64,000 nucleotides of DNA from an uncultured Candidatus Saccharibacteria bacterium (GTDB taxonomy: Bacteria > Patescibacteriota > Minisyncoccia > Phycocordibacterales > UBA918), in the NCBI GenBank assembly GCA_964643955.1, contig CAZXUO010000003.1:19865-83864 (forward strand), given 5' to 3'. Position numbers and translations under genes: made by a program. Within the stretch, counting starts at the first letter, position 1, and every line of letters begins with the position of its first letter. Under the pieces are notes generated by a model that was not told the origin of the DNA, did no database searches, and saw only the letters and a program-made list of their open reading frames with translations. Positions 7,991 to 19,976 of the stretch are shown piece by piece.

Positions 7991-9673
7991 ATGGCGCGCG
8001 CACAACGAACGACACGGAGCACCAACAAACACAGGAAATACATCTTCATCGTCGGCGGTGTCATGTCGGGAGTCGGCAAAGGTATTGCCGCTTCTTCTAT
8101 TGCGCATATCCTTCAGGCGCGCGGGCTTGTCGTGACGGCGATGAAGATCGATCCGTATATCAACGTGGACGCAGGTACGATGAATCCGACCGAGCACGGA
8201 GAAGTGTTTGTGCTTAAGGATGGCCTCGAGACGGATCAGGACATGGGTAACTATGAGCGTTTTCTCAATATCGACATTCCGAGCGCCAACTACATGACGA
8301 CCGGCAGCGTGTACCAGGAAGTCATCCGTCGTGAACGCAACCTCGAGTACGGAGGCAAGAATGTGGAGGTAGTACCCGATATTCCGCTTGAAGTTATCCG
8401 TCGCATCACAAAGGCGGGCGAGCTCGCGAAGGCACATGTGGTGATCACCGAGATCGGCGGCACCGTCGGTGAGTATCAAAATATTCTTTTCCTCGAGGCG
8501 GTCCGTATGATGAAGAGTCGTGCGCCGCAGAGTGTCGCCACGGTGCTCGTGAGCTACTTGCCGGTGCCGGGTTCGATCGGTGAGATGAAAACCAAGCCGA
8601 CGCAGTATGCGGCGCGTACGCTCAATAGCGCGGGTGTTTTTGCAGATGTGATCATCGCGCGCGCACCTGTCGCGATTGATCAGAAACGAAAAGAAAAAAT
8701 TGCGACGTTCTGCAACGTATCACCGGAGCATGTGATTGCTGCGCCTGATGTTGCAAGTATCTACGATGTGCCGATTAATTTTGAAAAAGACAATCTCTCG
8801 AAAAAACTCTGCGATCTGCTTTCGATAAAGAAGTGTAAAGGTACGGCGGATCTTGCTCCGTGGAAATCGTTTGTTGCGAAGTCAAAGAATACAAAGGGAA
8901 GCGTGAAGATCGCCGTGGTAGGGAAGTATTTTGATTCAGGTGACTTCGTCCTCTCGGACGTGTATATCTCAGTACTTGAGGCCATCAAGTCTGCGGCGTA
9001 CCACGAAGGGGTGAAGCCTGAGATTGACTACCTCTCGTCGGTGAAATTTGAAAAAGGATTGATGCCACTCTCGACACTCGACCATTACGACGGGGTACTT
9101 ATTCCTGGCGGATTCGGTTCAACGGGTATTGAGGGAAAAATAAAAGTGATTGAGTATGTGCGAAAGAAAAAGATTCCATACTTCGGCATTTGCTACGGCA
9201 TGCAGCTTGCGGTCGTTGAGTATGCGCGCAATATGTTGGGACTGAAGGGAGCATCGACTGGTGAGATTGATCCGAAGTCAAAGTATCTCGTGGTGGATGT
9301 GATGCTCGAACAAAAAGAGAAGATCGCAAAGAATGAGATGGGAGGTACGATGCGACTCGGTGAATATCCCGCGCATCTTGCAAAAGGAAGTATCGCCCGC
9401 GCGGCGTACGGAAAGGATGTCATCATTGAGCGCCACCGTCATCGCTATGAGGTGAATCCCGAGTATGTCGAGCGCCTCCGCGCGGGCGGCGCCATTTTCT
9501 CAGGCACCTCTCCAGATGGTCGTCTCATGGAAATCATGGAGCTCCCAAAAGAAAAACACCCATTTTTTGTAGGTGTCCAGTTTCATCCAGAATTTCACGC
9601 GCGACCACTTGCTCCGCATCCGATCTTTCGAGCGTTCATAGAAGCGTCGAAGAAAAACAGGAAAGTTAAATAG
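7991..9673 (+). CDS. pyrG: CTP synthase
   Basis: 'KYIFIVGGVMSGVGKGIAASS' N-terminal synthetase motif. C-terminal class-I glutamine amidotransferase 'GILIPGGFG…GICYGMQ' with the catalytic Cys. 560 aa. Confidence 0.95.
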   Translation: MARAQRTTRSTNKHRKYIFIVGGVMSGVGKGIAASSIAHILQARGLVVTAMKIDPYINVDAGTMNPTEHGEVFVLKDGLETDQDMGNYERFLNIDIPSANYMTTGSVYQEVIRRERNLEYGGKNVEVVPDIPLEVIRRITKAGELAKAHVVITEIGGTVGEYQNILFLEAVRMMKSRAPQSVATVLVSYLPVPGSIGEMKTKPTQYAARTLNSAGVFADVIIARAPVAIDQKRKEKIATFCNVSPEHVIAAPDVASIYDVPINFEKDNLSKKLCDLLSIKKCKGTADLAPWKSFVAKSKNTKGSVKIAVVGKYFDSGDFVLSDVYISVLEAIKSAAYHEGVKPEIDYLSSVKFEKGLMPLSTLDHYDGVLIPGGFGSTGIEGKIKVIEYVRKKKIPYFGICYGMQLAVVEYARNMLGLKGASTGEIDPKSKYLVVDVMLEQKEKIAKNEMGGTMRLGEYPAHLAKGSIARAAYGKDVIIERHRHRYEVNPEYVERLRAGGAIFSGTSPDGRLMEIMELPKEKHPFFVGVQFHPEFHARPLAPHPIFRAFIEASKKNRKVK

Positions 9674-9677
9674 AAAA

Positions 9678-9702
9678 GGTCGCCGCGCGAACGCGCGGCG
9701 AC
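9678..9702. terminator. Bidirectional GC hairpin terminator between pyrG (+) and a small minus-strand gene
   Basis: gtcgccgcgcg-aac-gcgcggcgac; flanked by A-run on the plus side and T-run on the minus side. Confidence 0.6.
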
Positions 9703-9713
9703 CAAGGCGCCGG

Positions 9714-9914
9714 TCATGCCGGTGCTCGCTCCTGCTCGACGAGACGGGGACTGGTCGAGCTGGTCGACATTCCCGCGTCGTGTGCCGGCTTGAAGGCATG
9801 GTCCCCCATCAGGCGCGGGAGCGTGTCGTGCTCCTCGCTCGTCCGGCCGCAGATGGCGCCTGTCTTCGGGTCGCGGTGCTGGCAGAGCTGTCCTCTCATG
9901 GCACTCTCCATCAT
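9714..9914 (-). CDS. Small hypothetical protein (66 aa) inside a ~63%-GC islet
   Basis: Own −10 (TATACT) and a GGAGA Shine-Dalgarno 6 nt before the ATG on the minus strand. Terminated by the bidirectional hairpin. Local GC is well above the ~50% window average. Confidence 0.4.
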   Translation of the reverse strand: MMESAMRGQLCQHRDPKTGAICGRTSEEHDTLPRLMGDHAFKPAHDAGMSTSSTSPRLVEQERAPA

Positions 9915-10017
9915 TCAGCTGGCGATAGTATGCCACATTTTCGCCAGCGCGCCATATGTTTGAGTGGAGCGCATTTTGATGTATTCTGAAGCCGTGGCAT
10001 TTTGCCATATATTTCAT

Positions 10018-10088
10018 TGCGGGATCGTCTAATGGTAGGACACTGGGTTTTGGTCCCAGGTATCTAGGTTCGAGTCCTAGTCCCGCAG
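10018..10088 (+). tRNA. tRNA-Gln (anticodon UUG)
   Basis: Acceptor tgcggga/tcccgca; D-arm gtct-aatggta-ggac; anticodon stem ctggg/cccag with loop ttTTGgt; T-arm ctagg-ttcgagt-cctag. No CCA. Confidence 0.8.
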
Positions 10089-10236
10089 CAGTCATGTGAG
10101 ATAGACTGAGACACCTAAACCAGTCATATTTCTCAAAGTATTTTTTGAACGAGTCATGGACACGAACCCTCATTATTTTCCTTGAAATTAAAACATCCAT
10201 ATTTCAAGGCGTTCTCTAGGTTCGTGCCCTAGAGAC
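10085..10236 (+). repeat. Repeat copy A: 75-bp core (10085–10159) abutting the tRNA-Gln 3' end, followed by a degenerate duplicate of the tRNA T-arm (ctctaggttcgtgccctagag, 10214–10236)
   Basis: Core gcagcagtcatgtgagatagactgagacAcctaaaCcagtcatatttctcaaagtattttttgaacgagtcatgg is 73/75 identical to copy B. Flanks ggttcgagtcc / ggacacgaacc are inverted. Confidence 0.7.
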
Positions 10237-10327
10237 TTTTTATCTTGCGACAGAAGCGATCCGTTTATCCGATAAATTTGAATTATTTTATTTATCGCGT
10301 CCATACTTCTGTTACAATTATTCGGTC

Positions 10328-12412
10328 ATGGAACTTTTTTCATACATGGGGCTGCACACAGCCTATCTATTTATCTTTTCGATTGGGCTAGCGCTTGGCA
10401 TTGGCGCGTCAGCTCTGAGTTACGCACTCTTTCTATTTGCAGGGCGAGACGGGCGCATATCGAAGGATGAGTTGGCTCTACTTTCGCTTTCTCGCAAGAC
10501 GGTATGGACTGCGTTTCTTTTGTATGGATTTAGTGGTATAGGGCTTTTCTCGCTCGCCTATGAATCAATGCTCTCTCTCGGCATCTTTTACGCAAGTATG
10601 ACGGTCGCGGCAATTCTTGTCGCGACCGAGCTTGCGTTTAGCTTCCGACATTTACCACGCGTACGGGATACGCGAGATGGAAGCGTGGCTCTTGATGCGT
10701 TCCTTCTCGAGAGCGGAGTCATCTCTGTCATTTCGTGGGTATTTCTTATGTTCCATCACGTAATCTATCGGACCGACATTGGCTATTTTGCGTTCATGGC
10801 TCTCTACACGGGCGCGCTTGCATTCGGGATGCTTGTTACGTGGGTAATCAGGCGCACGTCCATTCGTAGAAGCGATACGAAGATACTGAAGCGATCCATG
10901 ATTGCCGCGATTATGCTCGCGATCTGCTTTGGTGCCGCGTGGTTATTGGGTATCAGTACAATTGTCGATCCAGCGCAGATTGGAAAGGGTATCGTGCAGA
11001 ATGTAACTGGTACGAATTATACTGTTGACGACGTAGCACTCCACAACAACTCAGAGGACTGCTGGCTCATTATTGACGGCAAGGTATTCAATGCGACCGA
11101 GGCTTCAAAGCTGCACCCAGCCATGTTTGCGTGTGGTACTGATGTGAGCCTTAATTACCACAAGAATCACGGAGAGATTATTCGTGACAAGATGATGAAG
11201 TTCTATATCGGTGAACTTGGGGACGAGACCGGTGTTAAAAATGTTGACATTCCCTTTAAAAAACATGAGAACTTGAAGCCCTATCGCGAGCTGTATGCAA
11301 AGGAAGGTACGTGGGATCCCCATAATCTGATGCTCGTTGTTGAGAAAGATGAGGAAAAGCTCTTGGCGATAGATGGGTCGACGCATGAACTAGTCGGCCG
11401 GATCCATGAAGTTGGATTTCAGCCGCACACCTCGGTTTTCTCGTCGGATGCCGTATACATGTTCATCATCTCTCGCGACGGCTGGCTCACTAAGATCGAC
11501 CTTCGAACGCTCGAGCTGGTACGGACGGTGCATGTTGGGGAGAACTCGCGCGGCACCGCTCTTACGGATAATGACAAGTACGTCGCAATTGGAAACTACG
11601 CTCCGGGCAACCTGGTCATTCTCGACGCTGACACTATGGAGATGAAAAAGACTATACCCCTTGTCGAAGAGGTGAATGGAAAGGCCATTGAATCGCGCGC
11701 GGGCGCAGTCGTAGAGGATGGCAATCGCATTATCGTAGCACTAAAAGACGCTACGAGTGTCTGGGCGATTGATACAGACAATCCAGATTTCCCCGTCACA
11801 CATAAATTTAGAGACATTGGAGATAATGTCCCCGCACTGCACGATGCGTTTCTAACGCCAGGAGGATCGCACTACATAGTCGCCTCCCAAGGATCAAAGA
11901 CTGCATGGGTTCTCGATCTTGCGACTATGAAGCCGATTGCTGAAGTGGAGACTGGAGAGACGCCGCACACGGGTCCTGGAGCCGCGTGGGGTAACTACAT
12001 CTACATTCCTTCGCTTGGAGAAGGTCTCATCACCGTCATTGATACGACTACCTGGAAGACAGCCAAGTACATAAAGACAGGTGGCCCGGGGTTATTTGTG
12101 CGCAGCTACAGCAAGGATCCGTCGTATCCGTATGTATGGGCAGATACAGCATTTGGCGACCGCAAGGATGAGATATACGTTATCGATGGGCGAGTGAATG
12201 AGATAGTAAAGACCATCATTCCCGTGAAGGGAGAGAGCTCATGGCACCCAGAATTTACGTACGATGGAAAATTCGTGTACGTTGTCTCACCTTCGGCAAA
12301 TGAAGTTGAAGTATATGATGCGTACACGTTTGAGTTGATAAAACGCATTCCATCACAGATGCCATCAGCTATATCGAATGTGGGCCTTCGTATTGAGGAG
12401 CCGGGACTCTAA
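10328..12412 (+). CDS. Membrane-anchored cytochrome b5-like / cd1-nitrite-reductase-type (NirS/NirN/NirF-like) d1 beta-propeller fusion protein
   Basis: ~215-aa N-terminal multi-TM region. Then a cyt-b5-like heme domain ('LHNNSEDCWLIIDGKVFNATEASKLHPAMFACG', both axial His positions present). Then ~390 aa that align by eye to the NirS d1 domain ('FIISRDGWLTKIDL', 'YVAIGNYAPGNLVILDADTME', 'ETGETPHTGPGAAWGNYIY', 'GGPGLFVRSYSKDPSYPYVWADTAF'). Extended −10 TGTTACAAT lies 9 nt before the ATG. Confidence 0.6.
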   Translation: MELFSYMGLHTAYLFIFSIGLALGIGASALSYALFLFAGRDGRISKDELALLSLSRKTVWTAFLLYGFSGIGLFSLAYESMLSLGIFYASMTVAAILVATELAFSFRHLPRVRDTRDGSVALDAFLLESGVISVISWVFLMFHHVIYRTDIGYFAFMALYTGALAFGMLVTWVIRRTSIRRSDTKILKRSMIAAIMLAICFGAAWLLGISTIVDPAQIGKGIVQNVTGTNYTVDDVALHNNSEDCWLIIDGKVFNATEASKLHPAMFACGTDVSLNYHKNHGEIIRDKMMKFYIGELGDETGVKNVDIPFKKHENLKPYRELYAKEGTWDPHNLMLVVEKDEEKLLAIDGSTHELVGRIHEVGFQPHTSVFSSDAVYMFIISRDGWLTKIDLRTLELVRTVHVGENSRGTALTDNDKYVAIGNYAPGNLVILDADTMEMKKTIPLVEEVNGKAIESRAGAVVEDGNRIIVALKDATSVWAIDTDNPDFPVTHKFRDIGDNVPALHDAFLTPGGSHYIVASQGSKTAWVLDLATMKPIAEVETGETPHTGPGAAWGNYIYIPSLGEGLITVIDTTTWKTAKYIKTGGPGLFVRSYSKDPSYPYVWADTAFGDRKDEIYVIDGRVNEIVKTIIPVKGESSWHPEFTYDGKFVYVVSPSANEVEVYDAYTFELIKRIPSQMPSAISNVGLRIEEPGL

Positions 12413-12439
12413 TTTAAGCACTGAACTATTTTGCGTTTC

Positions 12440-12595
12440 GGTTCTAGACCGAGACGGTTTCGAGTCCCTGTCGGGCAGCAGTCATGTGAGATAGACTGAG
12501 ACGCCTAAATCAGTCATATTTCTCAAAGTATTTTTTGAACGAGTCATGGGCTCGAACCGTCTCGGGAGGGTGTCCTAGACGGGTCGTAAAATGAT
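12440..12595 (+). repeat. Repeat copy B: 75-bp core (12475–12549) enclosed by ~17-bp inverted flanks (ccgagacggtttcgagtcc / ggctcgaaccgtctcgg)
   Basis: Core is 97% identical to copy A. Flanks contain the T-loop-like 'ttcgagtcc' and 'tctagac' motifs. Confidence 0.7.
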
Positions 12596-12606
12596 ACGAT
12601 GTAGTT

Positions 12607-13638
12607 ATGCAAAAGCTTTCTAAATTATCAAAGGGAGACAAAGTGGCGATTCTTTCGCCAAGCTTTGCTGCGCCGGGTCGTTTCCCTGAAGTCTACAAAC
12701 TCGGATTGGAACGATTGCAGCAGGTTTTCGGACTCGTACCAGTTGAGTATCCAACTACAGCGAAACTCGGGGCTTCCGCTGAAGATAGAACCGCTGATCT
12801 CATTGAGGCTTTCGAAGACCCAGAAATCAAAGCCGTGATCGCAACTATTGGCGGCAACGACCAAGTTACCTATGTAAAAAATCTTCCACCAGAACCTTTC
12901 GTACAGAATCCAAAGTCTTTCTTTGGCTATAGTGACAACTCGCACCTTGCAAACTTCCTCTTCTTGAACGGCATTCCGTCATACTACGGCGGTTCAATTT
13001 TCACTCAATACGCTATGCAGGGTGAAATGGATGACTTTACTGTCGAATATCTTAAGCATGCTCTCTTTGACGAAGGAGAATTTGAACTCAAGGCATCCGA
13101 AACATACAACGACATGGGATTGAGTTGGGATGATTCTTCACTTCTTAAAACCAAGCGTCAGCACTGGCCGAACGAAGGCATGGTCTGGGACGGATCAGTT
13201 AATACCGAAGGATTGCTTTGGGGTGGCTGTGTTGAATCGGTCGATGAGATGTTACGTCATGGAGTGCCGATTCCGAGCCTCGAACAGTTTGAGAAAATCG
13301 TGTTAATGCTTGAGACCTCTGAAGAGATACCAAGTGCGGACTACGTATTCCGCGTTATGCGTGCGCTAGGTGAGCGCGGCATACTGGGACGGGTTCAAGG
13401 TGTCCTGATAGGACGAGCGAAAGCTTGGGAATTCGATAAGCCCAATTCATCAGAAGCAAAGACGGCGTACTGCAAAGAACAGCAGGAGACAATTCTTAAG
13501 GCAGTACGTTCGTATAACAAGACTGTTCCAGTGCTTCAGAACATGAATTTCGGACATACTGATCCTCAAATACCAATGCCGTACGGCGGTAAAGTACGAA
13601 TTGAGGGCGTAAATAAAAGGATCTTTTCCAGTTTCTAA
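12607..13638 (+). CDS. LD-carboxypeptidase (peptidase S66, LdcA/MccF-like)
   Basis: N-terminal 'GDKVAILSPSFAAP…TADLIEAFEDPEIKAVIATIGG' matches the S66 family signature; 343 aa. Confidence 0.7.
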   Translation: MQKLSKLSKGDKVAILSPSFAAPGRFPEVYKLGLERLQQVFGLVPVEYPTTAKLGASAEDRTADLIEAFEDPEIKAVIATIGGNDQVTYVKNLPPEPFVQNPKSFFGYSDNSHLANFLFLNGIPSYYGGSIFTQYAMQGEMDDFTVEYLKHALFDEGEFELKASETYNDMGLSWDDSSLLKTKRQHWPNEGMVWDGSVNTEGLLWGGCVESVDEMLRHGVPIPSLEQFEKIVLMLETSEEIPSADYVFRVMRALGERGILGRVQGVLIGRAKAWEFDKPNSSEAKTAYCKEQQETILKAVRSYNKTVPVLQNMNFGHTDPQIPMPYGGKVRIEGVNKRIFSSF

Positions 13639-13639
13639 G

Positions 13640-13757
13640 TCGCACCAGTCATGTGCGACCGAGAAGGTTCTAGACCGAAGAACACAGCAGCCATGTGAGA
13701 CCGACCGAGACGCTGATTATCGAGGATAGTAGTTCGCACCAGTCATGGGCACGAACT
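13640..13757 (+). repeat. Repeat copy C (diverged)
   Basis: Shares 'cagtcatgtg', 'ggttctagaccgaag', 'cagccatgtgagaccgaccgagacg' and 'cagtcatgggcacgaac' blocks with copies A and B. Confidence 0.5.
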
Positions 13758-13898
13758 TGTCCAGAATCAGCATTCGGAGTCTCCAGGTACTATTCCGAAA
13801 ATCGCATACCCGGTGAGTCCAGTATCCAGACAGAAAAACCACCTGCATGGGTGGTTTTTCTGTCCCGCTTGCGAATCCCTAACAGGGGGCGTCCTGTA

Positions 13899-14429
13899 CT
13901 AACAGGTTCTGCTAACGACACGCTGCGCGCCTGCACGCTTCTGCAACATGGCGAACACCCACTCAAATACTCCCAGAAGAGAAGCTGCGTAAAATAAGTC
14001 CCCGATAAACATATTTCTTAGAAACGGCAGACCGGCGACATAGGAAGCGATAAGGCCTTCAAGCGTCGGCGGATACCACGAAGAAGCAGCCCATACGGCA
14101 AAGTTCGTCACGAGGAAGAAGAGTATGGAGGAAGCCATGACAAGAAGCATGACCGTCGCGGGTCGCGTTCCTCGGGCGAGGATACCCACACCGCCAATCA
14201 CTGCAATGGATCCGTAGACGCTTAAGAGCACCTTCCAATCGTAGAATCCGATGACCAAATCTGCAGCGACCATTACGATAAGAGGAATGGCGATGGCCCA
14301 TAGAGGCCCGACATATTTTCCCGCAGCAAATGCGATTGCGGTCACGGGGGTTGTGTTAGGTGGGTGCGGCGCAAGCCGTCCGAGAAGGCCGACCCCTATA
14401 AGTCCTAGAATAGAGAGGAATGTCTTCAT
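13899..14429 (-). CDS. Small multi-TM membrane protein, putative ECF-type S-component (CbrT-like); start taken at the internal Met (MKTFLSIL)
   Basis: ~176 aa with 5–6 TM, the size and topology of an ECF S-component. Abuts the DUF4430 gene with a 1-nt spacer. The tool's longer ORF (to 14513) would overlap the upstream gene. Confidence 0.45.
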   Translation of the reverse strand: MKTFLSILGLIGVGLLGRLAPHPPNTTPVTAIAFAAGKYVGPLWAIAIPLIVMVAADLVIGFYDWKVLLSVYGSIAVIGGVGILARGTRPATVMLLVMASSILFFLVTNFAVWAASSWYPPTLEGLIASYVAGLPFLRNMFIGDLFYAASLLGVFEWVFAMLQKRAGAQRVVSRTC

Positions 14430-14430
14430 A

Positions 14431-15072
14431 CTAGAATCCCTTGAATTCCCAGACCACTGCCTTTCCGTCTGTAAGTTCGTACTGGTCTGCCCCGACCATC
14501 GGCGTTTCTCCATCCACCTGATACTGCCAGTAGTTCCCGTCGGTACCGTTTACAAGTCCGCCCATCGCGGTCACCAATATCCCCATATCTCCGTAGTCCT
14601 CGGTCGCAAGGTCAAGGTCCGGGTCAGTTGCATCGAGGCGTGTCAGAAGTTCAAGCACAGTTTCGCCGCTCTCGATTGGCGTGGTCGTTGCTTCGTATAC
14701 GCCTTCGATGGTGAGTGTTACGGTGTCGACCTCCTCTTCTTCCGTTTCGGTTTCGTTCGTGTACGTATTGTTCGTGACGTAATACGTGCGCGAAGTACGT
14801 GAACTCTCGTTGGATGTTTGGGCTGGCGCAGACTCCGTTGTAGCAAGCGTAGAGGTAGCAATTATCACATTGACTGTGATGACTGGTGGTGCTAGTTGGG
14901 GGGACGAGTTCTCAATGATAATTGGAGCGGTTGAGGGCGTTGACGTTGAAGTTACAAACACTTGAATGGGTGGTGTCTGTACGTCCGCTCTCGTACCGTT
15001 GCCATAGGTGAAGAGAAGTCCCACGACAAGAGTGAAGACTGAGAATACTGCGAGCCATGTGTAATCTTTCAT
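14431..15072 (-). CDS. Membrane-anchored surface protein with C-terminal DUF4430 domain (transcobalamin-like B12-binding fold)
   Basis: N-terminal TM, Thr/Ser-rich linker, then 'ILVTAMGGLVNGTDGNYWQYQVDGETPMVGADQYELTDGKAVVWEF' typical of DUF4430. Confidence 0.6.
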   Translation of the reverse strand: MKDYTWLAVFSVFTLVVGLLFTYGNGTRADVQTPPIQVFVTSTSTPSTAPIIIENSSPQLAPPVITVNVIIATSTLATTESAPAQTSNESSRTSRTYYVTNNTYTNETETEEEEVDTVTLTIEGVYEATTTPIESGETVLELLTRLDATDPDLDLATEDYGDMGILVTAMGGLVNGTDGNYWQYQVDGETPMVGADQYELTDGKAVVWEFKGF

Positions 15073-15090
15073 AAAGAGTGCGCTAGGGTG

Positions 15091-15612
15091 CTAATAAGTA
15101 GGCGACTTCTCTGCGTTTCCGCTTGTCTGCGCATCACGCCGCGCAAGCGCATAGAAGAAACTTGAGAGCCGATTGAGGAATGCGTTGAGCTCGATTGAAT
15201 CTTCTAGGCGTGCCCGCACGACTGCGCGTTCGGTTCGCCGCGTCACGGTTCGGGCGAAATCAAAGAGGGCTGAAAGCATGGTCGCGCCAGGGACGACAAA
15301 TGATGTTGGCTTCTCTATGGTCGTTTCGATAGAGTCGATGACGGTCTCAAGTGCGTTTACATGCGTATTCGTCACTCGCATCGTCGAACCGGCAAGCTGC
15401 GCTTGCGCGATGAAAAGAACTTCCTGTACCTGCTCTAGTTCATCCGCAGTTTCCTTATGGTCTTCGCGTACATATGCTTTGCAGAGCCCGGTGAGTGAAT
15501 TGAGCTCGTCGATGCTACCTAAAGCTTCAAACAAGGGGTGGTCCTTCGAAACACGCTCCTTAGTTCCAAAGAGTCCTGATGTACCGTTATCTCCTTTGCG
15601 GGTGTACAACAT
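15091..15612 (-). CDS. ATP:cob(I)alamin adenosyltransferase, PduO type
   Basis: N-terminal 'MLYTRKGDNGTSGLFG' matches the PduO-type 'IYTRTGDxGxT' motif; 173 aa. Confidence 0.8.
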   Translation of the reverse strand: MLYTRKGDNGTSGLFGTKERVSKDHPLFEALGSIDELNSLTGLCKAYVREDHKETADELEQVQEVLFIAQAQLAGSTMRVTNTHVNALETVIDSIETTIEKPTSFVVPGATMLSALFDFARTVTRRTERAVVRARLEDSIELNAFLNRLSSFFYALARRDAQTSGNAEKSPTY

Positions 15613-15616
15613 ATTT

Positions 15617-17956
15617 TTACTGTGTTGCGGCTGCTTCTAACGATTCGACAGGTAGCGTCATATCGACCTCGCATGTACCGCCAGCACAGGCTAGCTCGCG
15701 CTTTTGTTCCGTTTCGTCCGCATGTTCATACACGAGTAACTTCGAGTAATCAACAGCAGGTATTTTTTTTGCCATTTCCTCGTACTGTTCTTTAGTAATC
15801 GTCTCGTACGGTGCAAGTCGATAGACATGATCGAAGCGCGGTAGGAACGAAAGCCCGCCGATGATATCCCAATTCTTTTGCACCCAGTCAACAACGCTAA
15901 TCCACTCATCTTCTCCGACTGATATCGTCGCAGATGGATTGTGCTCTGTGTAATTGAGTTTGACCGTTTTCCAGTATTCGAGTTGTTCGAGCGCTGAGAA
16001 GTCGTCCTTGAATCTAGCGTTTCCTGGAGACTCAATCGGGAATTCTAAGACAAAAGTCGTCGCGTTCTCTTCTGTCTGGCCGACTTCCGGATGGTAGGGA
16101 ACTCCTTGATCTTTCAGCATTTTGAATAGAGAGTCGGTTGCTGATATGCGCACGCGCCGAATGTAATATTTTGCATGACGCGGATGAATACCAGAAGAGC
16201 AGTTGAATGTTTGCGAGACTGTTCCCGAGGGTTTTACAGCAGTAACTGAGAGGGATGGCTTAATCCCAAAACGTTTCGCATACACCTCATTGGTTCTGAC
16301 AGCTATGTCGCGCATTGCCTGCATTGCCTCGGGATTGCGTGCTGTCTCGGAATCCCACTGTCCCGTTACGGAAACTCCTAAAAGACGTTCCTCTTCGCAA
16401 TGTTCCGTCCAATCCTTGGAGATGTAGTTAAAGCGTGACAAAGAAGACTGATATGTACCAAGAAGCGATGCCAACCGGGCCTTTCGCACCAAGCTCTCAA
16501 GAGTGTCATCTTCGCGAGCGATAATTTCCGATAGATTACAGAACTGTTTCGATTGCAGAATAATCTCGCCGCATGGGTTAGTGCCTATAGGCCCCTGCAC
16601 CACACCATCTTCGCCGATGAATCCAACACTTTTGAAATACTTTTCACGTCGCTTCGGTAATGTATTTGCAAGCGATCCACGATTAAAGATTCCTCGTTCA
16701 CCAGATCCGCTTTTCATCAGGGCGACCCACTCTTCCATGAGTTCATTACTCGTCGGTCTCGTTCCATACACAGCTGAATTGTTCGCAACAGAACGATGCG
16801 GTTCCGCGAGGAAGAACTGGCCCTTTTTTGCATCACGCATATCAACGTCATCGAGGTCGGAGAGGCTGATCATGGCAGTTCGCCGCACGCCTCCCGACAC
16901 AACGCACTCGCCGATTTTGCATACGATGTCGTGGACATCAATCGGGCGCAGTCGTCTGCCTTGTCGTCTCAATATCTTTTCGCGTGCAAAAGCGAGAAGC
17001 GACTGAAGCGGTTCCGGTCCGGATGCTTTGCCTCCCATTGTTTTCAAACGTGCACCTGCCGGACGAATAAGGGAAAAATCAAAATTTATATCATTTCCTG
17101 CGTACCAAGTTTTGAGTCCAAGTGTTAGCGCGTCGCACCATCCCTCTTTGGAATCTGCTACGGCATGGGTCGGTAACTTTTTCTTTTGAGACTGTTTCTG
17201 TATTTGAGGCAGCTGTTCTATATTCTGGCTTTCAACTGCGAACCCAACACCGCATCCTTGCATGGAAAGATACATAATCTCCGCGAAGTCTTGGAGAGCT
17301 GCCGGAGCAATAAATGTGCAGTTATAGGCGCAAGTATTACAGCGACGCGCAGGTTCGCCCGCAAACTGCATCAGGCGCATTGAAGGCATGACCTCTTGCT
17401 TGAGAATTGCTTCACGCACTTCTGTGTACTCTTCTTCAGAGAGCTTATCGCCAAGATTCTCGCGCATAAACGCTACATAACGATCCACCGTCTCAACCCA
17501 TGTCTCGCGTCGCTTTTCGGCATCAATCCAGCGAGCATACGTGCGCAGGTAGACAAATTCACCCAGAGGGTTTCCTGCAAAGTATTTTTTGCTTTCCGCA
17601 GTCAAAGCACGAACATGATCTGGCACTTCACCTATTTCAAACCGCTTCTCTGCGCGCTCAGCACGGTACAAAATATATGCCTTTGCTGATTTAAGAAAGC
17701 CAAGCATCATAAGTTCTGTTTCTACTTCGTCCTGCACACCTTCAACGGTAGGGACAAAGTGCTCGTCGGCGCGTTTCTTTGCTTCGAGTTTCTTTTCAAC
17801 TGCACGAGCAACCGTCTTCATGGCGCTTTCCTCAAATTCACCAACTGATCTCATTGCTTTACTGATTGCAACTGCGATCTTCTCCCTCTCAAAGGGAACA
17901 GTGGTACCATTTCGCTTTATAATGCAGGTAATTTTGGGGAAAGTGGTTTGCGACAT
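15617..17956 (-). CDS. nrdJ: Ribonucleotide reductase class II (adenosylcobalamin-dependent, NrdJ) with N-terminal ATP-cone
   Basis: ATP-cone 'IKRNGTTVPFEREKIAVAI', 'LRTYARW', active-site 'TNPCGEI', C-terminal Cys pair 'CAGGTCEVD'; 779 aa. Confidence 0.85.
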   Translation of the reverse strand: MSQTTFPKITCIIKRNGTTVPFEREKIAVAISKAMRSVGEFEESAMKTVARAVEKKLEAKKRADEHFVPTVEGVQDEVETELMMLGFLKSAKAYILYRAERAEKRFEIGEVPDHVRALTAESKKYFAGNPLGEFVYLRTYARWIDAEKRRETWVETVDRYVAFMRENLGDKLSEEEYTEVREAILKQEVMPSMRLMQFAGEPARRCNTCAYNCTFIAPAALQDFAEIMYLSMQGCGVGFAVESQNIEQLPQIQKQSQKKKLPTHAVADSKEGWCDALTLGLKTWYAGNDINFDFSLIRPAGARLKTMGGKASGPEPLQSLLAFAREKILRRQGRRLRPIDVHDIVCKIGECVVSGGVRRTAMISLSDLDDVDMRDAKKGQFFLAEPHRSVANNSAVYGTRPTSNELMEEWVALMKSGSGERGIFNRGSLANTLPKRREKYFKSVGFIGEDGVVQGPIGTNPCGEIILQSKQFCNLSEIIAREDDTLESLVRKARLASLLGTYQSSLSRFNYISKDWTEHCEEERLLGVSVTGQWDSETARNPEAMQAMRDIAVRTNEVYAKRFGIKPSLSVTAVKPSGTVSQTFNCSSGIHPRHAKYYIRRVRISATDSLFKMLKDQGVPYHPEVGQTEENATTFVLEFPIESPGNARFKDDFSALEQLEYWKTVKLNYTEHNPSATISVGEDEWISVVDWVQKNWDIIGGLSFLPRFDHVYRLAPYETITKEQYEEMAKKIPAVDYSKLLVYEHADETEQKRELACAGGTCEVDMTLPVESLEAAATQ

Positions 17957-18013
17957 ATCGATGAATACGTTATATTGATAATGGTCTATGTATTATAATA
18001 TAGATGAGTATCT
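17957..18013. promoter_or_regulatory. AT-rich divergent promoter region between nrdJ (−) and the arsR–nirK operon (+)
   Basis: 57 bp with a palindromic 'tattataata' usable as −10 in both directions. No Shine-Dalgarno on either side. Confidence 0.5.
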
Positions 18014-18385
18014 ATGAATAAGAAAAAGTTGGGGAAAACGAATACTATTAAGCAGGGCGACACGAAAAATTCGGGCCGTACATACCCTCGCCCGTCGTGG
18101 GTGCCTAAAACCGTTTTAGGCGAGGAAGAACTGTGCCCTGATTGCTTTAAGGTTGTCGGAGAGAGAAGCCGCTATAATCTTGTGTGTACGTTGGGTAAGA
18201 ATGCAGAGGGTATGACGGTTGGCGAATTGACTGAAACCATGAAGTTGCGTCAGCCTACGGTTACGCATCATTTGCAAGTTCTTCGTTCCGTCGATGCTGT
18301 TGAGATGGAACCGCGAGGTCGGGAACGTATTTACAAACTTAATCGAGGAGCGCACTGCTTCGAAGAGTGTAAAATCCCTTATTAA
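18014..18385 (+). CDS. ArsR/SmtB-family transcriptional regulator with extra Cys pairs (CPDC…HCFEEC)
   Basis: wHTH recognition helix 'LRQPTVTHHLQVLRSVDAV' (ArsR 'QPTVSHHL' signature). The stop lies 6 nt before the nirK start. Confidence 0.7.
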   Translation: MNKKKLGKTNTIKQGDTKNSGRTYPRPSWVPKTVLGEEELCPDCFKVVGERSRYNLVCTLGKNAEGMTVGELTETMKLRQPTVTHHLQVLRSVDAVEMEPRGRERIYKLNRGAHCFEECKIPY

Positions 18386-18391
18386 CATTCT

Positions 18392-19612
18392 ATGGAACTA
18401 TTTTCATATCTTTGGCAGTATCTAGTGGGGGGCTTCGGTCTTGTGATCGCGTACGGCTTCGCGGCGATATTTATTTTTCTTGTGTTGCGCCAGTTCCATT
18501 CATGGAAAATCACTACAGCACTTGTCGCTATTTTTATAGGTGCCTCGATTGCCTTTTATGTTCCAAACGGTATTCCTCATGCATTTGAATATCCTCTGGG
18601 ACTCCGCACCTTTGGACCTTCCGAAGGTCCCGTTCTGCCGCTTTCAAATGTATTTTCGTTCTTGAAGAATTTCAGCTCGTTTGAGCGTGTCGCGAATATT
18701 GCCCGCAATCCCGATGACGTACCAGGCACAGCCGTGCAGAGTGTAGACGGTATCGTTGAAATCAACCTGGTTGCAAAGGAGGTGGTCGGTGAGATGGCCG
18801 ATGGAGTGACGTTTAACTATTGGACATTTGATGGCACCGTTCCAGGCCCATTCTTGCGAGTGCGCGAAGGCGATACGATTCGTCTAACACTTACGAACGA
18901 TCCATCGAGTCTGCATCATCACTCAATCGATCTTCATGCAGTAACTGGTCCAGGAGGAGGAGCGGCCGCCACTATAGTCGCGCCTGGCGAAAGCAAAACG
19001 ATAACGTTCAAGGCTTTGAATCCTGGCATTTTCATTTATCACTGCGCACATCCGAATGTTGCAAATCACATGGCACATGGGATGTATGGATTAATTCTTG
19101 TTGAGCCAGAGGAAGGACTACCTCCCGCAGACAAAGAATTTTACCTTGTGCAAGGTGAATTCTACAGTTCAGGATCACTTGGCCGTAAAGGACTTCAACT
19201 CTTTGACGCCCAGGCGATGCTTGAAGGGAAGCCACAATACATCGTTTTCAACGGCAAAACCGGCGCACTTGTTGATAATATGAAAGCCGATGTGGGTGAC
19301 ACCGTTCGCCTATATATTGGTAATGGCGGAGTCAATCTTATCTCCAGCTTCCACGTGATTGGCGAGATTTTTGACCGCGTATACCGAGAGGGAGACCTAG
19401 TAACTCCTCCTGCACAGAGCGTGCAGACTACGTTAGTTCCAGCTGGAGGCGCTGCAATGGTTGAGTTTAAGGTTGATTACCCGGGTAATTACGTTCTTGT
19501 TGACCACGCACTCTCTCGACTTGATCGTGGCGCGTGGGGAGTCCTGCATGTTGAGGGAGAAGCAGACCCAATGATTTTCGATGGAGAGATACAGAGCGGT
19601 CACGGACATTAA
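18392..19612 (+). CDS. nirK: Copper-containing nitrite reductase NirK with N-terminal two-TM anchor
   Basis: 'HHHSIDLHAVTGPGGGAA…PGIFIYHCAHPNVANHMAHGMYGLILVEP' carries the type-1 and type-2 Cu ligand pattern (H-x4-H, HC, H, M). Two cupredoxin domains. N-terminus 'MELFSY…' is hydrophobic. Confidence 0.85.
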   Translation: MELFSYLWQYLVGGFGLVIAYGFAAIFIFLVLRQFHSWKITTALVAIFIGASIAFYVPNGIPHAFEYPLGLRTFGPSEGPVLPLSNVFSFLKNFSSFERVANIARNPDDVPGTAVQSVDGIVEINLVAKEVVGEMADGVTFNYWTFDGTVPGPFLRVREGDTIRLTLTNDPSSLHHHSIDLHAVTGPGGGAAATIVAPGESKTITFKALNPGIFIYHCAHPNVANHMAHGMYGLILVEPEEGLPPADKEFYLVQGEFYSSGSLGRKGLQLFDAQAMLEGKPQYIVFNGKTGALVDNMKADVGDTVRLYIGNGGVNLISSFHVIGEIFDRVYREGDLVTPPAQSVQTTLVPAGGAAMVEFKVDYPGNYVLVDHALSRLDRGAWGVLHVEGEADPMIFDGEIQSGHGH

Positions 19613-19634: not shown

Positions 19635-19976
19635 CTAAATTAAGCTCAGTTTTTTCTCTTTAAGAAGCATCCTGCTTCTTAGGTGGCTCAGCAATTCTCG
19701 CTTCTCGTACATCGGGCGCTTCCGTAAGATGTACTTTGCGTAATTCCGGATATCTATTTCCTTGATTTTTACCTTTTCCTTAACTTCGCGCCCTAGCACC
19801 GATTCTTGGAATTCATTGTGCGCCAATATCTCAGCTTTAATCCTGTCTTTCATTCCGATCTCGTCCAACGACACAGTATCGAGTATTTCCGCTAGCTGTT
19901 CGGTCAGTTCCTCCTCCCGGATGTAGCCGCATGGGCAATCCTTATCCCTGAATTTCGTGCATCCGTAGTGGGACAT
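19635..19976 (-). pseudogene. Remnant of a large serine recombinase (C-terminal zinc-ribbon and coiled-coil only)
   Basis: 'YGCTKFRDKDCPCGYIREEELTEQLAEIL…' resembles the recombinase zinc-beta-ribbon and coiled-coil region. No catalytic resolvase domain upstream. Sits in a ~42%-GC islet. Confidence 0.45.

Follow-up and report, generated by a model that had tools for sequence, protein, structure and literature searches.

A Probable Integration Hot Spot Directly 3' of tRNA-Gln in Paceibacteria, Shared by Serine Recombinase-Encoding Elements and Small Recombinase-Less Cassettes

Introduction

Staphylococcal cassette chromosome (SCC) and pseudo-SCC elements insert at the 3' end of a conserved gene, rlmH (orfX), of staphylococci, employing the serine recombinases CcrAB and building tandem composite arrays with direct repeats. 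SCC cassettes that lack a recombinase are thought to be moved in trans, their repeats are short, i.e., about 15-30 bp, and their target is protein-coding. With integrons (attI/attC sites, recombinase IntI), arrays of mostly co-oriented one- or two-gene cassettes are found downstream of a fixed entry site, with an imperfect inverted-repeat element of about 60-140 nt between cassettes. A similar organization is seen with the locus considered here, which is found in a 64,000-nt stretch (hereafter, the window) of contig CAZXUO010000003.1 from an uncultured Candidatus Saccharibacteria bacterium. There, three copies (A, B, and C) of a structured unit, the first overlapping the 3' end of a tRNA-Gln gene, bracket two cargo genes.

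DNA found just beyond a tRNA gene can also be of interest as RNA, as with 3'ETS-leuZ of E. coli, a functional RNA from a tRNA 3' trailer. Such trailer-derived RNAs have in common with the present unit a conserved sequence directly 3' of a tRNA, co-orientation with that tRNA, and a terminator end. Tandem arrays at tRNA genes, that is, of the Islander/TIGER type, resemble this locus in their insertion at a tRNA 3' end, in direct repeats containing a tRNA-like fragment, in an integrase gene beside one end, in successive insertions that give rise to arrays, and in integrase-less 'satellite' units (PMC7192596). Serine integrases, as of a survey published in 2020, were not known to target tRNA genes (PMC7192596). 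Tycheposons, the tRNA-anchored islands of Prochlorococcus, similarly are found in streamlined genomes as cargo-bearing elements at specific tRNAs, with new elements pushing older ones inward, with fragmented integrases and partial tRNAs remaining behind, and with cargo that is adaptive, i.e., metals, nutrients, and defence; they possess mostly tyrosine recombinases (910/937) along with replication modules (bioRxiv 10.1101/2020.12.28.424599).

Viewed as a tRNA-anchored array, the present locus has its inserted DNA directly at the tRNA 3' end, its segments are bounded by direct repeats carrying a tRNA-3'-like fragment, and those segments display presence/absence polymorphism, with one relative (L144) lacking the first of the two cargo cassettes, another (L050) lacking both, and a further pair of loci (L034 versus L016) differing in a third cassette. 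An integrase within each element, by contrast, is absent from the window's cassettes. Viewed instead as a prophage encoding a large serine recombinase (LSR), relatives of the locus supply both the recombinase domains and packaging genes, whereas the window holds only a C-terminal LSR remnant. We consider it probable that this is a site-specific integration hot spot directly 3' of tRNA-Gln, and that its users are LSR-encoding, temperate phage-like elements of Paceibacteria/Parcubacteria, of the candidate phyla radiation (CPR), together with small, integrase-less cargo cassettes of the same family. No description of this type of locus was found in the open-access literature searched, and in the open-access papers found on CPR/Patescibacteria, islands and prophages are reported without mention of a tRNA-linked site or recombinase.

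The Repeated Unit in the Window

The tRNA-Gln(UUG) gene is found by both ARAGORN and Rfam (tRNA, 61.3 bits). Starting within its T-arm is a direct repeat of 103 nt, with 91% identity between 10069-10171 and 12459-12561. An initial annotation of this DNA had described a 75-bp core recurring at 73/75 identity and beginning exactly at the tRNA 3' end. The recurrence is just as described, with 10085-10159 and 12475-12549 differing at 2 of 75 positions, but the starting point is not, as the 103-nt repeat begins inside of the T-arm. A 24-mer taken from the core is seen two times in the window versus not at all in 100 shuffles. The diverged third copy that had been proposed is recovered as well: copy C, spanning 13639-13864, is detected by profile nhmmer at E = 5e-19 (13660-13761, core) and E = 1e-41 (13685-13863, 'tail 2' profile), and beyond copies A, B, and C no further copy is found in the window by profile search.

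Inverted flanks with a T-loop-like motif likewise exist as previously noted (GGTTCGAGTCC / GGACACGAACC, 10/11 complementary), and copy B forms a stem of roughly 19 bp. A T-arm-like duplicate does follow copy A (10063-10080 versus 10215-10232, 16/18 matching). It had been taken as a local duplication of the target, however, and that part does not hold, as in 25 loci of other genomes the unit has the hairpin in question conserved within it. Between the copies, in agreement with the initial annotation, are exactly two open reading frames (ORFs), one encoding a Cyt-b5 plus cytochrome d1 fusion, here 'NirS-like', and the other an LD-carboxypeptidase (LdcA). Coordinates are collected in Table 1.

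Units away from a tRNA are preceded by what we describe as a P-arm, i.e., a short, T-arm-like, element-side arm. The motif GGTTCTAGACCGA of this arm is identical in copies B (12440-12452) and C (13666-13678). Comparing the tRNA-like piece of copy B with the local tRNA, the acceptor strand reads TCGGGCA versus TCCCGCA, and the T stem is broken in B; this piece, going by its letters, is not derived from the local tRNA. The P-arm of copy B is also found 3' of the NirS-like gene in L005, in that case with no core after it.

The proteins of the window occur in samples such as SRR12762303 and SRR12762304. In short-read assemblies of this organism, the breaks fall exactly at the repeats, that is, the assemblies break at this locus because repeats are present there. 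One such Logan contig (L001, 2390 nt) is equivalent to window positions 10130-12519, which is exactly one repeat period, and carries the NirS-like gene. That length may be no more than what is expected from collapse of the assembly at a repeat, though a circular cassette would give the same length, and L001 does not distinguish the two.

Table 1. Features of the tRNA-Gln locus, in window coordinates
Feature	Positions	Strand	Remarks
tRNA-Gln(UUG)	10018..10089	+	T-arm and acceptor 3' strand are the left (host) arm of the insertion site
Unit A core, 76 nt, CAGCAG TCAT GTGAGA ... AGTCATGGAC	10086..10161	+	97% identical to B core; near-identical to cores of L019 and L026
'Anti-T' motif GGACACGAACCC, inverted T-loop motif	10158..10169	+	Complementary to tRNA T-arm 10066-10076 and to T-arm-like hairpin 10219-10229
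Unit A 'tail 1'	10162..10245	+	AT-rich hairpin 10180-10188/10201-10209, T-arm-like hairpin 10213-10235, then T-run (fold, terminator scan)
Cargo 1: membrane protein, cytochrome b5 fused to cytochrome d1 (NirS/NirF-like) beta-propeller	10328..12412	+	Pfam
Copy B P-arm: GGTTCTAGACCGAGAC, then degenerate T-arm and acceptor-like strand	12436..12475	+	Travels with upstream cargo
Unit B core, 76 nt	12476..12551	+	Repeat comparison and profile search
Unit B short tail TCGAACCGTCTCGGGAGGGTGTCCTAGACGGGTC, a truncated 'tail 2'	12552..12585	+	Closes the roughly 19-bp stem with the P-arm; fold z = -4.3
Cargo 2: LD-carboxypeptidase LdcA (Peptidase_S66)	12607..13638	+	Pfam
Copy C left arm: truncated core-5'-like piece CACCAGTCATGTGCGACCGAGA, then T-loop-like GGTTCTAGACC	13639..13684	+	Homologous to L016 5270-5317
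Unit C core, 66-nt variant	13685..13750	+	86% identical to L034
Unit C 'tail 2'	13751..13864	+	Module GGTACTATTCCG..GCATACC-hairpin-ATCCAGAC; 15-bp perfect bidirectional terminator 13829-13864
DUF6580, DUF4430, cobalamin adenosyltransferase, class II ribonucleotide reductase (-), then ArsR-type HTH, multicopper oxidase (+)	13899..19612	.	Pfam
LSR remnant, C-terminal ~111 aa, 113-codon ORF	19635..19976	-	tblastn 69-84% to residues ~338-449 of LSRs of L069, L017, and L014

The Unit in Other Genomes

Searching for the core in other genomes and comparing the tRNA-Gln loci of relatives, as the initial annotation had suggested, proved informative, yielding 73 cores in 67 loci and, as considered below, insertion polymorphism. 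The scan made use of a degenerate pattern, CAGCAG-N4-GTGAGA-N35-65-AGTCATGGRC, built from the copies of L005, and covered one genome per prokaryotic species. It returned 74 stretches, for which 8-kb locus blocks were fetched. Metagenome-assembled genomes (MAGs) of Patescibacteria account for 67 of these 74, with the other 7 being chance matches of other lengths in other phyla. The host MAGs are Paceibacterota/Parcubacteria, Nomura-, Campbell-, Kaiser-, Yonath-, Vogel-, and Taylorbacteria, plus ones labelled Saccharibacteria. Many of the latter, as well as a contig binned as Chitinophagaceae (L046), carry a typical Paceibacteria-type unit and LSR element, and probably these taxon or bin labels are wrong.

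The unit is both conserved and linked to tRNA-Gln. Its core has the form CAGCAG....GTGAGA-N50-AGTCATGGGC, is exactly 76 nt long in 69 of 73 instances, and includes a 50-nt interior that is fixed in length while differing in its fold between variants. In the register of copy A, 39 of the 73 cores abut tRNA-Gln (22 UUG, 17 CUG); the other 34, which do not abut one, were not all traced to a tRNA-Gln. Both tRNA-Gln genes of a single genome can bear a core (L063 and L069). Alternatively, cores can occur well away from any tRNA, as in L005, which encodes a relative of the NirS-like protein (89% aa identity) and where three or more full copies plus a partial one are situated between other genes with no tRNA within 14 kb. 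Such cores are preceded by conserved T-arm-like P-arms, e.g., GACCGAGACGGTTCGAATCC..GCGG or GGTTCTAACATCGTC.., that are not from the local tRNA. The 66-nt core variant of copy C is carried by other genomes too (L016, L034), and in L034 it is found directly on tRNA-Gln(CUG).

Cores are followed by one of a small number of tails. Tail 1 consists of an AT-rich hairpin, a T-arm-like hairpin, and usually a T-run; that of copy A is kept in 25 loci and is homologous to the resident unit of a syntenic relative (L050). Tail 2, as seen with copy C, combines a conserved module, GGTACTATTCCG..GCATACC-hairpin-ATCCAGAAC, with a strong bidirectional terminator, and is found truncated in copy B as well as in L026, L044, L144, L145, and L151. 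Between genomes, 76-200 nt of the unit can be shared at 90-100% identity, with core variants and tail types occurring in all combinations. The window's exact combination of tRNA-Gln and CAGCAG gave 0 matches against JGI metagenomes.

The anticodon of the syntenic tRNA-Gln found behind PyrG varies, being UUG in the window and in L049 but CUG in L050, L020, L067, and L069. The anticodon varies likewise at the DnaX-linked tRNA-Gln locus. Either C/U changes are frequent or parts of the tRNA are swapped by recombination at the site.

Large Serine Recombinases

Clustering of all ORFs of the 8-kb loci revealed an association of the unit with an LSR of 440-470 aa in 15 loci. This protein has Resolvase, Recombinase, and Zn_ribbon_recom domains (in L080, PF00239, PF07508, and PF13408) and matches the phrog_95 integrase (3e-67). 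The LSR is strictly tied to the units in both position and orientation, in that it is downstream of and antisense to a core in 15 of 15 loci. Found behind it are TerL (phrog_38, 9e-82), TerS (2e-9), and a DNA methylase, while between core and LSR are accessory genes, among them CsoR-CopA-HMA and the Hachiman pair HamA/HamB. In L064, L092, and L145 the terminator of the unit, i.e., of the tail-2 module, abuts the LSR stop codon, and in CAYLHB010000002.1 two units bracket about 25 kb which hold LSR and terminase genes. As an observation on cargo, the LSR elements of L013 and L027 carry the Hachiman anti-phage system as HamA (PF08878, 8e-62) plus a DEAD/ResIII helicase.

These LSRs are 59-90% identical among themselves and have relatives (42-82%) on 58 IMG/VR viral contigs. 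In those IMG/VR loci the tRNAs, namely six for Ser, four for Gln, and a single one for each of Asp, Trp, and Asn, are found downstream of the LSR on the opposite strand, the one exception being a sense-strand tRNA-Lys in L119, which is beside an antisense tRNA-Ser. Relatives at 42-63% (L090-L133) adjoin tRNA-Ser, -Asp, -Trp, and -Asn, usually at the extreme end of a viral contig, though software used to call provirus boundaries may contribute to finding tRNAs at the ends of IMG/VR contigs. These placements are suggestive of an entire clade of serine integrases whose sites are tRNA-linked.

Within the window, the LSR remnant is downstream of and antisense to the units, that is, in the same relative position as in intact elements. 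The catalytic N-terminal part was not found, the fragment is without Pfam or PHROG match, and no phage packaging or structural genes were found in the window.

Cassettes and Their Movement

The same cassettes are found in different arrays, and sites exist both empty and occupied. A cassette consisting of a unit, MarR, MATE, and FMNred genes, and a P-arm occurs in L012, L016, L061, L073, and L146 at 92-100% identity, and each time the following unit and cargo differ. From the 66-nt core onward, L016 and L034 are 99.85% identical over 2.7 kb while their upstream DNA differs: in L034 this block is directly on tRNA-Gln(CUG), behind DnaX-HisPhos, whereas in L016 it is behind the MarR cassette at another tRNA-Gln(UUG). 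The NirS cassette of the window, P-arm included (10308-12479), is 85.5% identical to 5963-8133 of L005, where it is part of a different array, and LdcA cassettes recur in L021, L052, and L144. Between species some cassettes are 92-100% identical versus about 70% for housekeeping genes.

Neighbours of the tRNA at this locus are PyrG, FtsEX, and PrfB. In L144, a metagenome contig, the order is PyrG C-terminus, tRNA-Gln(CUG), unit B, and LdcA, with the NirS cassette absent; judged from that order, L144 is an empty site for the NirS cassette. Its LdcA is 92.6% identical in aa to that of the window and, at the DNA level, its unit B plus leader are about 93% identical (an estimate made by eye on printed sequences), while its PyrG fragment is only 73% identical. 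This is evidence for horizontal transfer of the LdcA cassette. L050, which is syntenic (PrfB-FtsEX-PyrG, 70% aa), has tRNA-Gln, core, tail 1, and ArsR/RNR (RNR, ribonucleotide reductase), with no cargo.

An identity break is found at the tRNA 3' end. Specifically, among pairs of units with 95% identity or more across the 160 nt starting from CAGCAG, 21 of 22 show only 54-84% identity over the 69 nt upstream. The left boundary of the mobile DNA therefore is the tRNA 3' end. The insertion hot spot with repeated site-specific integration that was initially put forward thus finds support in the polymorphism (L144, L050, and L016 versus L034), in cassettes residing in different arrays, and in a recombinase family that is tied to the site.

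Distant relatives of the NirS-like gene have different neighbourhoods (L006 and L009), i.e., between aminoacyl-tRNA synthetase genes or after PNPase, with Val, Lys, and Ala tRNA genes nearby. No unit is present in these two neighbourhoods, which are uninformative with regard to the repeat. Many Logan contigs with the Cyt-b5/cytochrome d1 fusion are only ~2.2-2.4 kb in length, which hints at flanking repeats around distant NirS-like relatives as well.

A Proposed Mechanism

Going by its association with the units, the LSR would be what moves the cassettes, acting in trans where a recombinase is absent, with crossover presumably occurring at or beside CAGCAG. Every element would possess, at its tRNA-proximal end, a unit, that is, a 76-nt core plus a tail ending in a terminator-like hairpin, and, at its distal end, a short T-arm-like P-arm. 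The incoming form would be a circle having a P-arm|unit junction, with an attP-like junction such as GAGGTTCTAACATCGTCTAAGACTCG|CAGCAGTCATGTGAGATAGAC across P-arm|CAGCAG. Recombination of this circle with tRNA-Gln|resident unit would yield tRNA|incoming unit-cargo-...-P-arm|resident unit. The tRNA consequently would be joined to the new unit, and the older unit, now behind the incoming P-arm, would have been moved downstream. Repetition of this process would generate tRNA-unit-cargo-unit-cargo-unit. What portion of the unit extends past its first ~25 nt would serve the element rather than recombination, perhaps for transcription stop or insulation beside the integrase gene.

From serial insertion, which would be the simplest account, it follows that the P-arm always goes with the upstream cargo, that the tRNA-proximal unit need not resemble the others, that the last unit of an array has its tail 2 in full along with a terminator, and that a (decayed) LSR is distal to the last unit. 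The window would then be tRNA-Gln | unit A - NirS-like gene - P-arm | unit B - LdcA - arm | unit C - (RNR/B12, ArsR, multicopper oxidase) - truncated LSR, which is best read as two single-gene cassettes stacked before a decayed LSR element.

A number of observations nevertheless weigh against this account. The window's two cassettes encode only the NirS-like protein and LdcA, with no recombinase, so that mobilisation in trans has to be assumed, and the sole trace of an LSR in the window is a 113-codon remnant found 6 kb away. LSR att sites normally are about 40-50 bp with a 2-bp crossover, while the repeated block is 100-220 nt and so extends far beyond what recombination needs. To our knowledge, recombination between attL and attP is not carried out by canonical serine integrases, and thus for elements to stack at one site, either specificity would have to be relaxed or the sites would have to retain attB function. 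Neither circular nor excised forms were seen, and the sequence does not reveal the exact crossover. The core gave 0 matches against IMG/VR viral contigs. Some related LSR elements at tRNA-Gln (L092, L103) lack the 76-nt core, and thus the core is not obligatory for targeting.

Extending the proposal, we raise as a tentative possibility, which we would not presently favour, that CPR Paceibacteria possess a serine recombinase-driven cassette platform, functionally an integron analogue. Integrase-less one- or two-gene cassettes, each with an attP-like P-arm|core junction and a structured unit, would be captured at the tRNA-Gln 3' end, stacked there, and exchanged between species by LSRs supplied in trans by resident phage-like elements, and the unit's RNA, transcribed from the promoter of the tRNA, would serve between cassettes as a terminator or attenuator.

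Alternative Explanations

The unit might instead primarily be a structured RNA from the tRNA-Gln 3' trailer (a terminator, attenuator, or trailer-derived small RNA), which elements target and for which they bring a replacement copy. We view this as rather doubtful, though it is compatible with LSR-mediated integration rather than exclusive of it. All copies are co-oriented with the tRNA; tails 1 and 2 end in a hairpin plus T-run, with terminator-like hairpins at 10213-10235 and 13829-13864; elements bear about 200 nt of unit, far above what an LSR site needs; and folds of copies A and B are more stable than those of shuffles (z = -2.6 and -4.3, respectively). Terminators or attenuators were also an option in the initial annotation, which the terminator-like ends of A and C make partly right, with a regulatory RNA being a candidate. 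Covariation is not above that of shuffles. That is, the folding half of the fold-and-covariation comparison turned out positive but the covariation half did not, with helix columns being near-invariant; folds of sub-families suggested helices, while a formal count of pairs gave no excess over shuffles. Also in line with an RNA is the anti-T motif (GGGCUCGAAC), which is complementary to both the tRNA T-arm and the tail-1 hairpin at 10-11/11 pairs in nearly all loci. Its helix with T-like sequence is paired in 97% of cells (25 loci) versus 15-50% when slid, and involves G-U pairs that are mismatches if read on the other strand. The window copy has one compensatory change (CACGAAC / GUUCGUG), and the tail-2 hairpin changes from CUGC..GCAG to CCGG..CCGG. 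Anti-T could alternate between two pairing partners, the T-arm of the tRNA and the T-arm-like hairpin downstream, a switch about which we are just as doubtful, and its dual complementarity gives the three-segment layout of a classic attenuator. Rfam 15, by contrast, matches only the tRNA, with nothing credible at E <= 5 in 9950-13950, and RNAalifold over 75 copies finds no consensus structure, the 50-nt interior folding in a variant-dependent manner. Identical units furthermore occur on very different tRNAs, and the unit thus is inherited with the mobile DNA rather than with the host tRNA, while related elements exist at tRNA-Gln without the core. A role of the unit as RNA, whether in termination or insulation beside the integrase gene or as an attenuator, accordingly is a candidate one.

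Site-specific integration by LSRs also has to be set against ways of moving cassettes without one. Homologous recombination, e.g., following natural transformation, could exchange cassettes using units and tRNA as portable homology arms, with no site-specific recombinase required. In favour of this, the 76-200 nt shared at 90-100% would be long enough for recombination of the RecA type, variants of the core and types of tail are indeed shuffled, and cassettes lack recombinases. The break in identity, however, is sharp at the tRNA 3' end rather than at variable points within the unit, the LSR-unit association is strict at 15/15, and conserved P-arms that move with upstream cargo are predicted by a site-specific mechanism but are given no reason by homologous exchange. 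As the whole explanation we thus consider it unlikely; as an alternative or additional route, recombination between units is possible. That the repeats are a MITE-like (miniature inverted-repeat transposable element) non-autonomous transposon, or a tRNA-derived repeat spreading genome-wide in the manner of a short interspersed nuclear element (SINE), is very improbable. Copy B does possess inverted termini of 14-19 bp (CCGAGACGGTTTCGAG / CTCGAACCGTCTCGG) around a body of roughly 95 nt, but such termini are restricted to one tail type, no transposase is tied to the copies, and the 64 kb hold just three copies, which belong to a single array. In each fetched 8-kb block that includes a tRNA or more than one core, the copies are in tRNA-Gln-anchored arrays. 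The MITE-like or tRNA-derived mobile element of the initial annotation accordingly is abandoned, there being neither dispersed copies in the window nor a consistent target-site duplication.

A sigma-70 consensus scan of window positions 9650-14000 gave 0 promoter-like sites versus 5.4 expected from shuffles, and hence no promoter evidence. By eye, -10-like sequences are seen at ~10306-10311 (TACAAT) and ~12587-12592 (TAAAAT), 10-15 nt upstream of both cargo start codons, which suggests that the leaders of the cargo genes are very short or absent.

Various other identities were considered and set aside. No tyrosine recombinase is found among the recurrent protein clusters of the 67 loci, where the tRNA neighbours are PyrG, FtsEX, and PrfB, and an integron was rejected. 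For a split or permuted tRNA, a tmRNA piece, or an amber-suppressor pseudo-tRNA, ARAGORN finds nothing at the P-arm. The P-arm loop TTCTAGA does read as the anticodon CTA (amber), but as this loop varies between copies (TTCTAGA, TTCGAGA, TTCTGGA), a suppressor tRNA is probably not what is present. A small ORF from the conserved ATG of AGTCATGGGC keeps neither frame nor stop across tail variants, and no hammerhead-type motif of a ribozyme core is found by eye or by Rfam.

The Distal Block

Genes found between unit C and the LSR remnant (13899-19612) are presumed, given this placement, which is that of the cargo in intact elements, to be the cargo of an older, decayed element. The ArsR-HTH (helix-turn-helix), class II RNR, cobalamin adenosyltransferase, and DUF4430 genes adjoin the tRNA-Gln unit in both the window and L050 (1-3852), with orientation inverted between them, and in the window the multicopper oxidase and then the LSR remnant follow this RNR/B12 block. 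Because the block adjoins the unit in both genomes and is inverted in the window, the RNR/B12 operon may itself be cargo of the hot spot.

Significance and Comparison with Known Systems

The genomes of CPR/Patescibacteria are tiny, and little is known about the ways in which they gain accessory genes; this type of locus represents a concrete and widespread route. Genes for copper resistance, efflux, Hachiman defence, cell wall, and redox functions are slotted behind tRNA-Gln as small modules that are common to several species. The locus also points to a clade of LSRs at tRNA 3' ends (Gln, Ser, Asp, Trp, and Asn), and tRNA-linked LSRs, having natural sites that are defined, are of practical interest for use as integration tools.

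Relative to SCC elements, the target here is a tRNA, the repeated unit is long and structured, and both the recombinase clade and the hosts are unrelated. Relative to integrons there is no IntI tyrosine recombinase, the entry site is a tRNA gene, the enzyme is an LSR, and cargo genes seem to possess their own -10 boxes. Unlike RNAs from tRNA 3' trailers, the sequence here travels with mobile DNA, with several copies residing away from any tRNA. Tycheposons differ from what is described here in that the latter has LSRs with terminase genes, a conserved core-plus-tail unit, cassettes free of mobility genes, and hosts in another phylum (Patescibacteria). Versus Islander/TIGER-type arrays, the integrase here is an LSR, the repeated block of 100-220 nt is mostly beyond the tRNA 3' end, where it is long and conserved and leaves the tRNA seemingly uncut, and many cassettes are of a single gene, 1-3 kb, with no mobility gene. 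The architecture, that is, matches that of known tandem tRNA-gene arrays, while the LSR, the long unit beyond the tRNA, and the one-gene cassettes lacking mobility genes set this locus apart.

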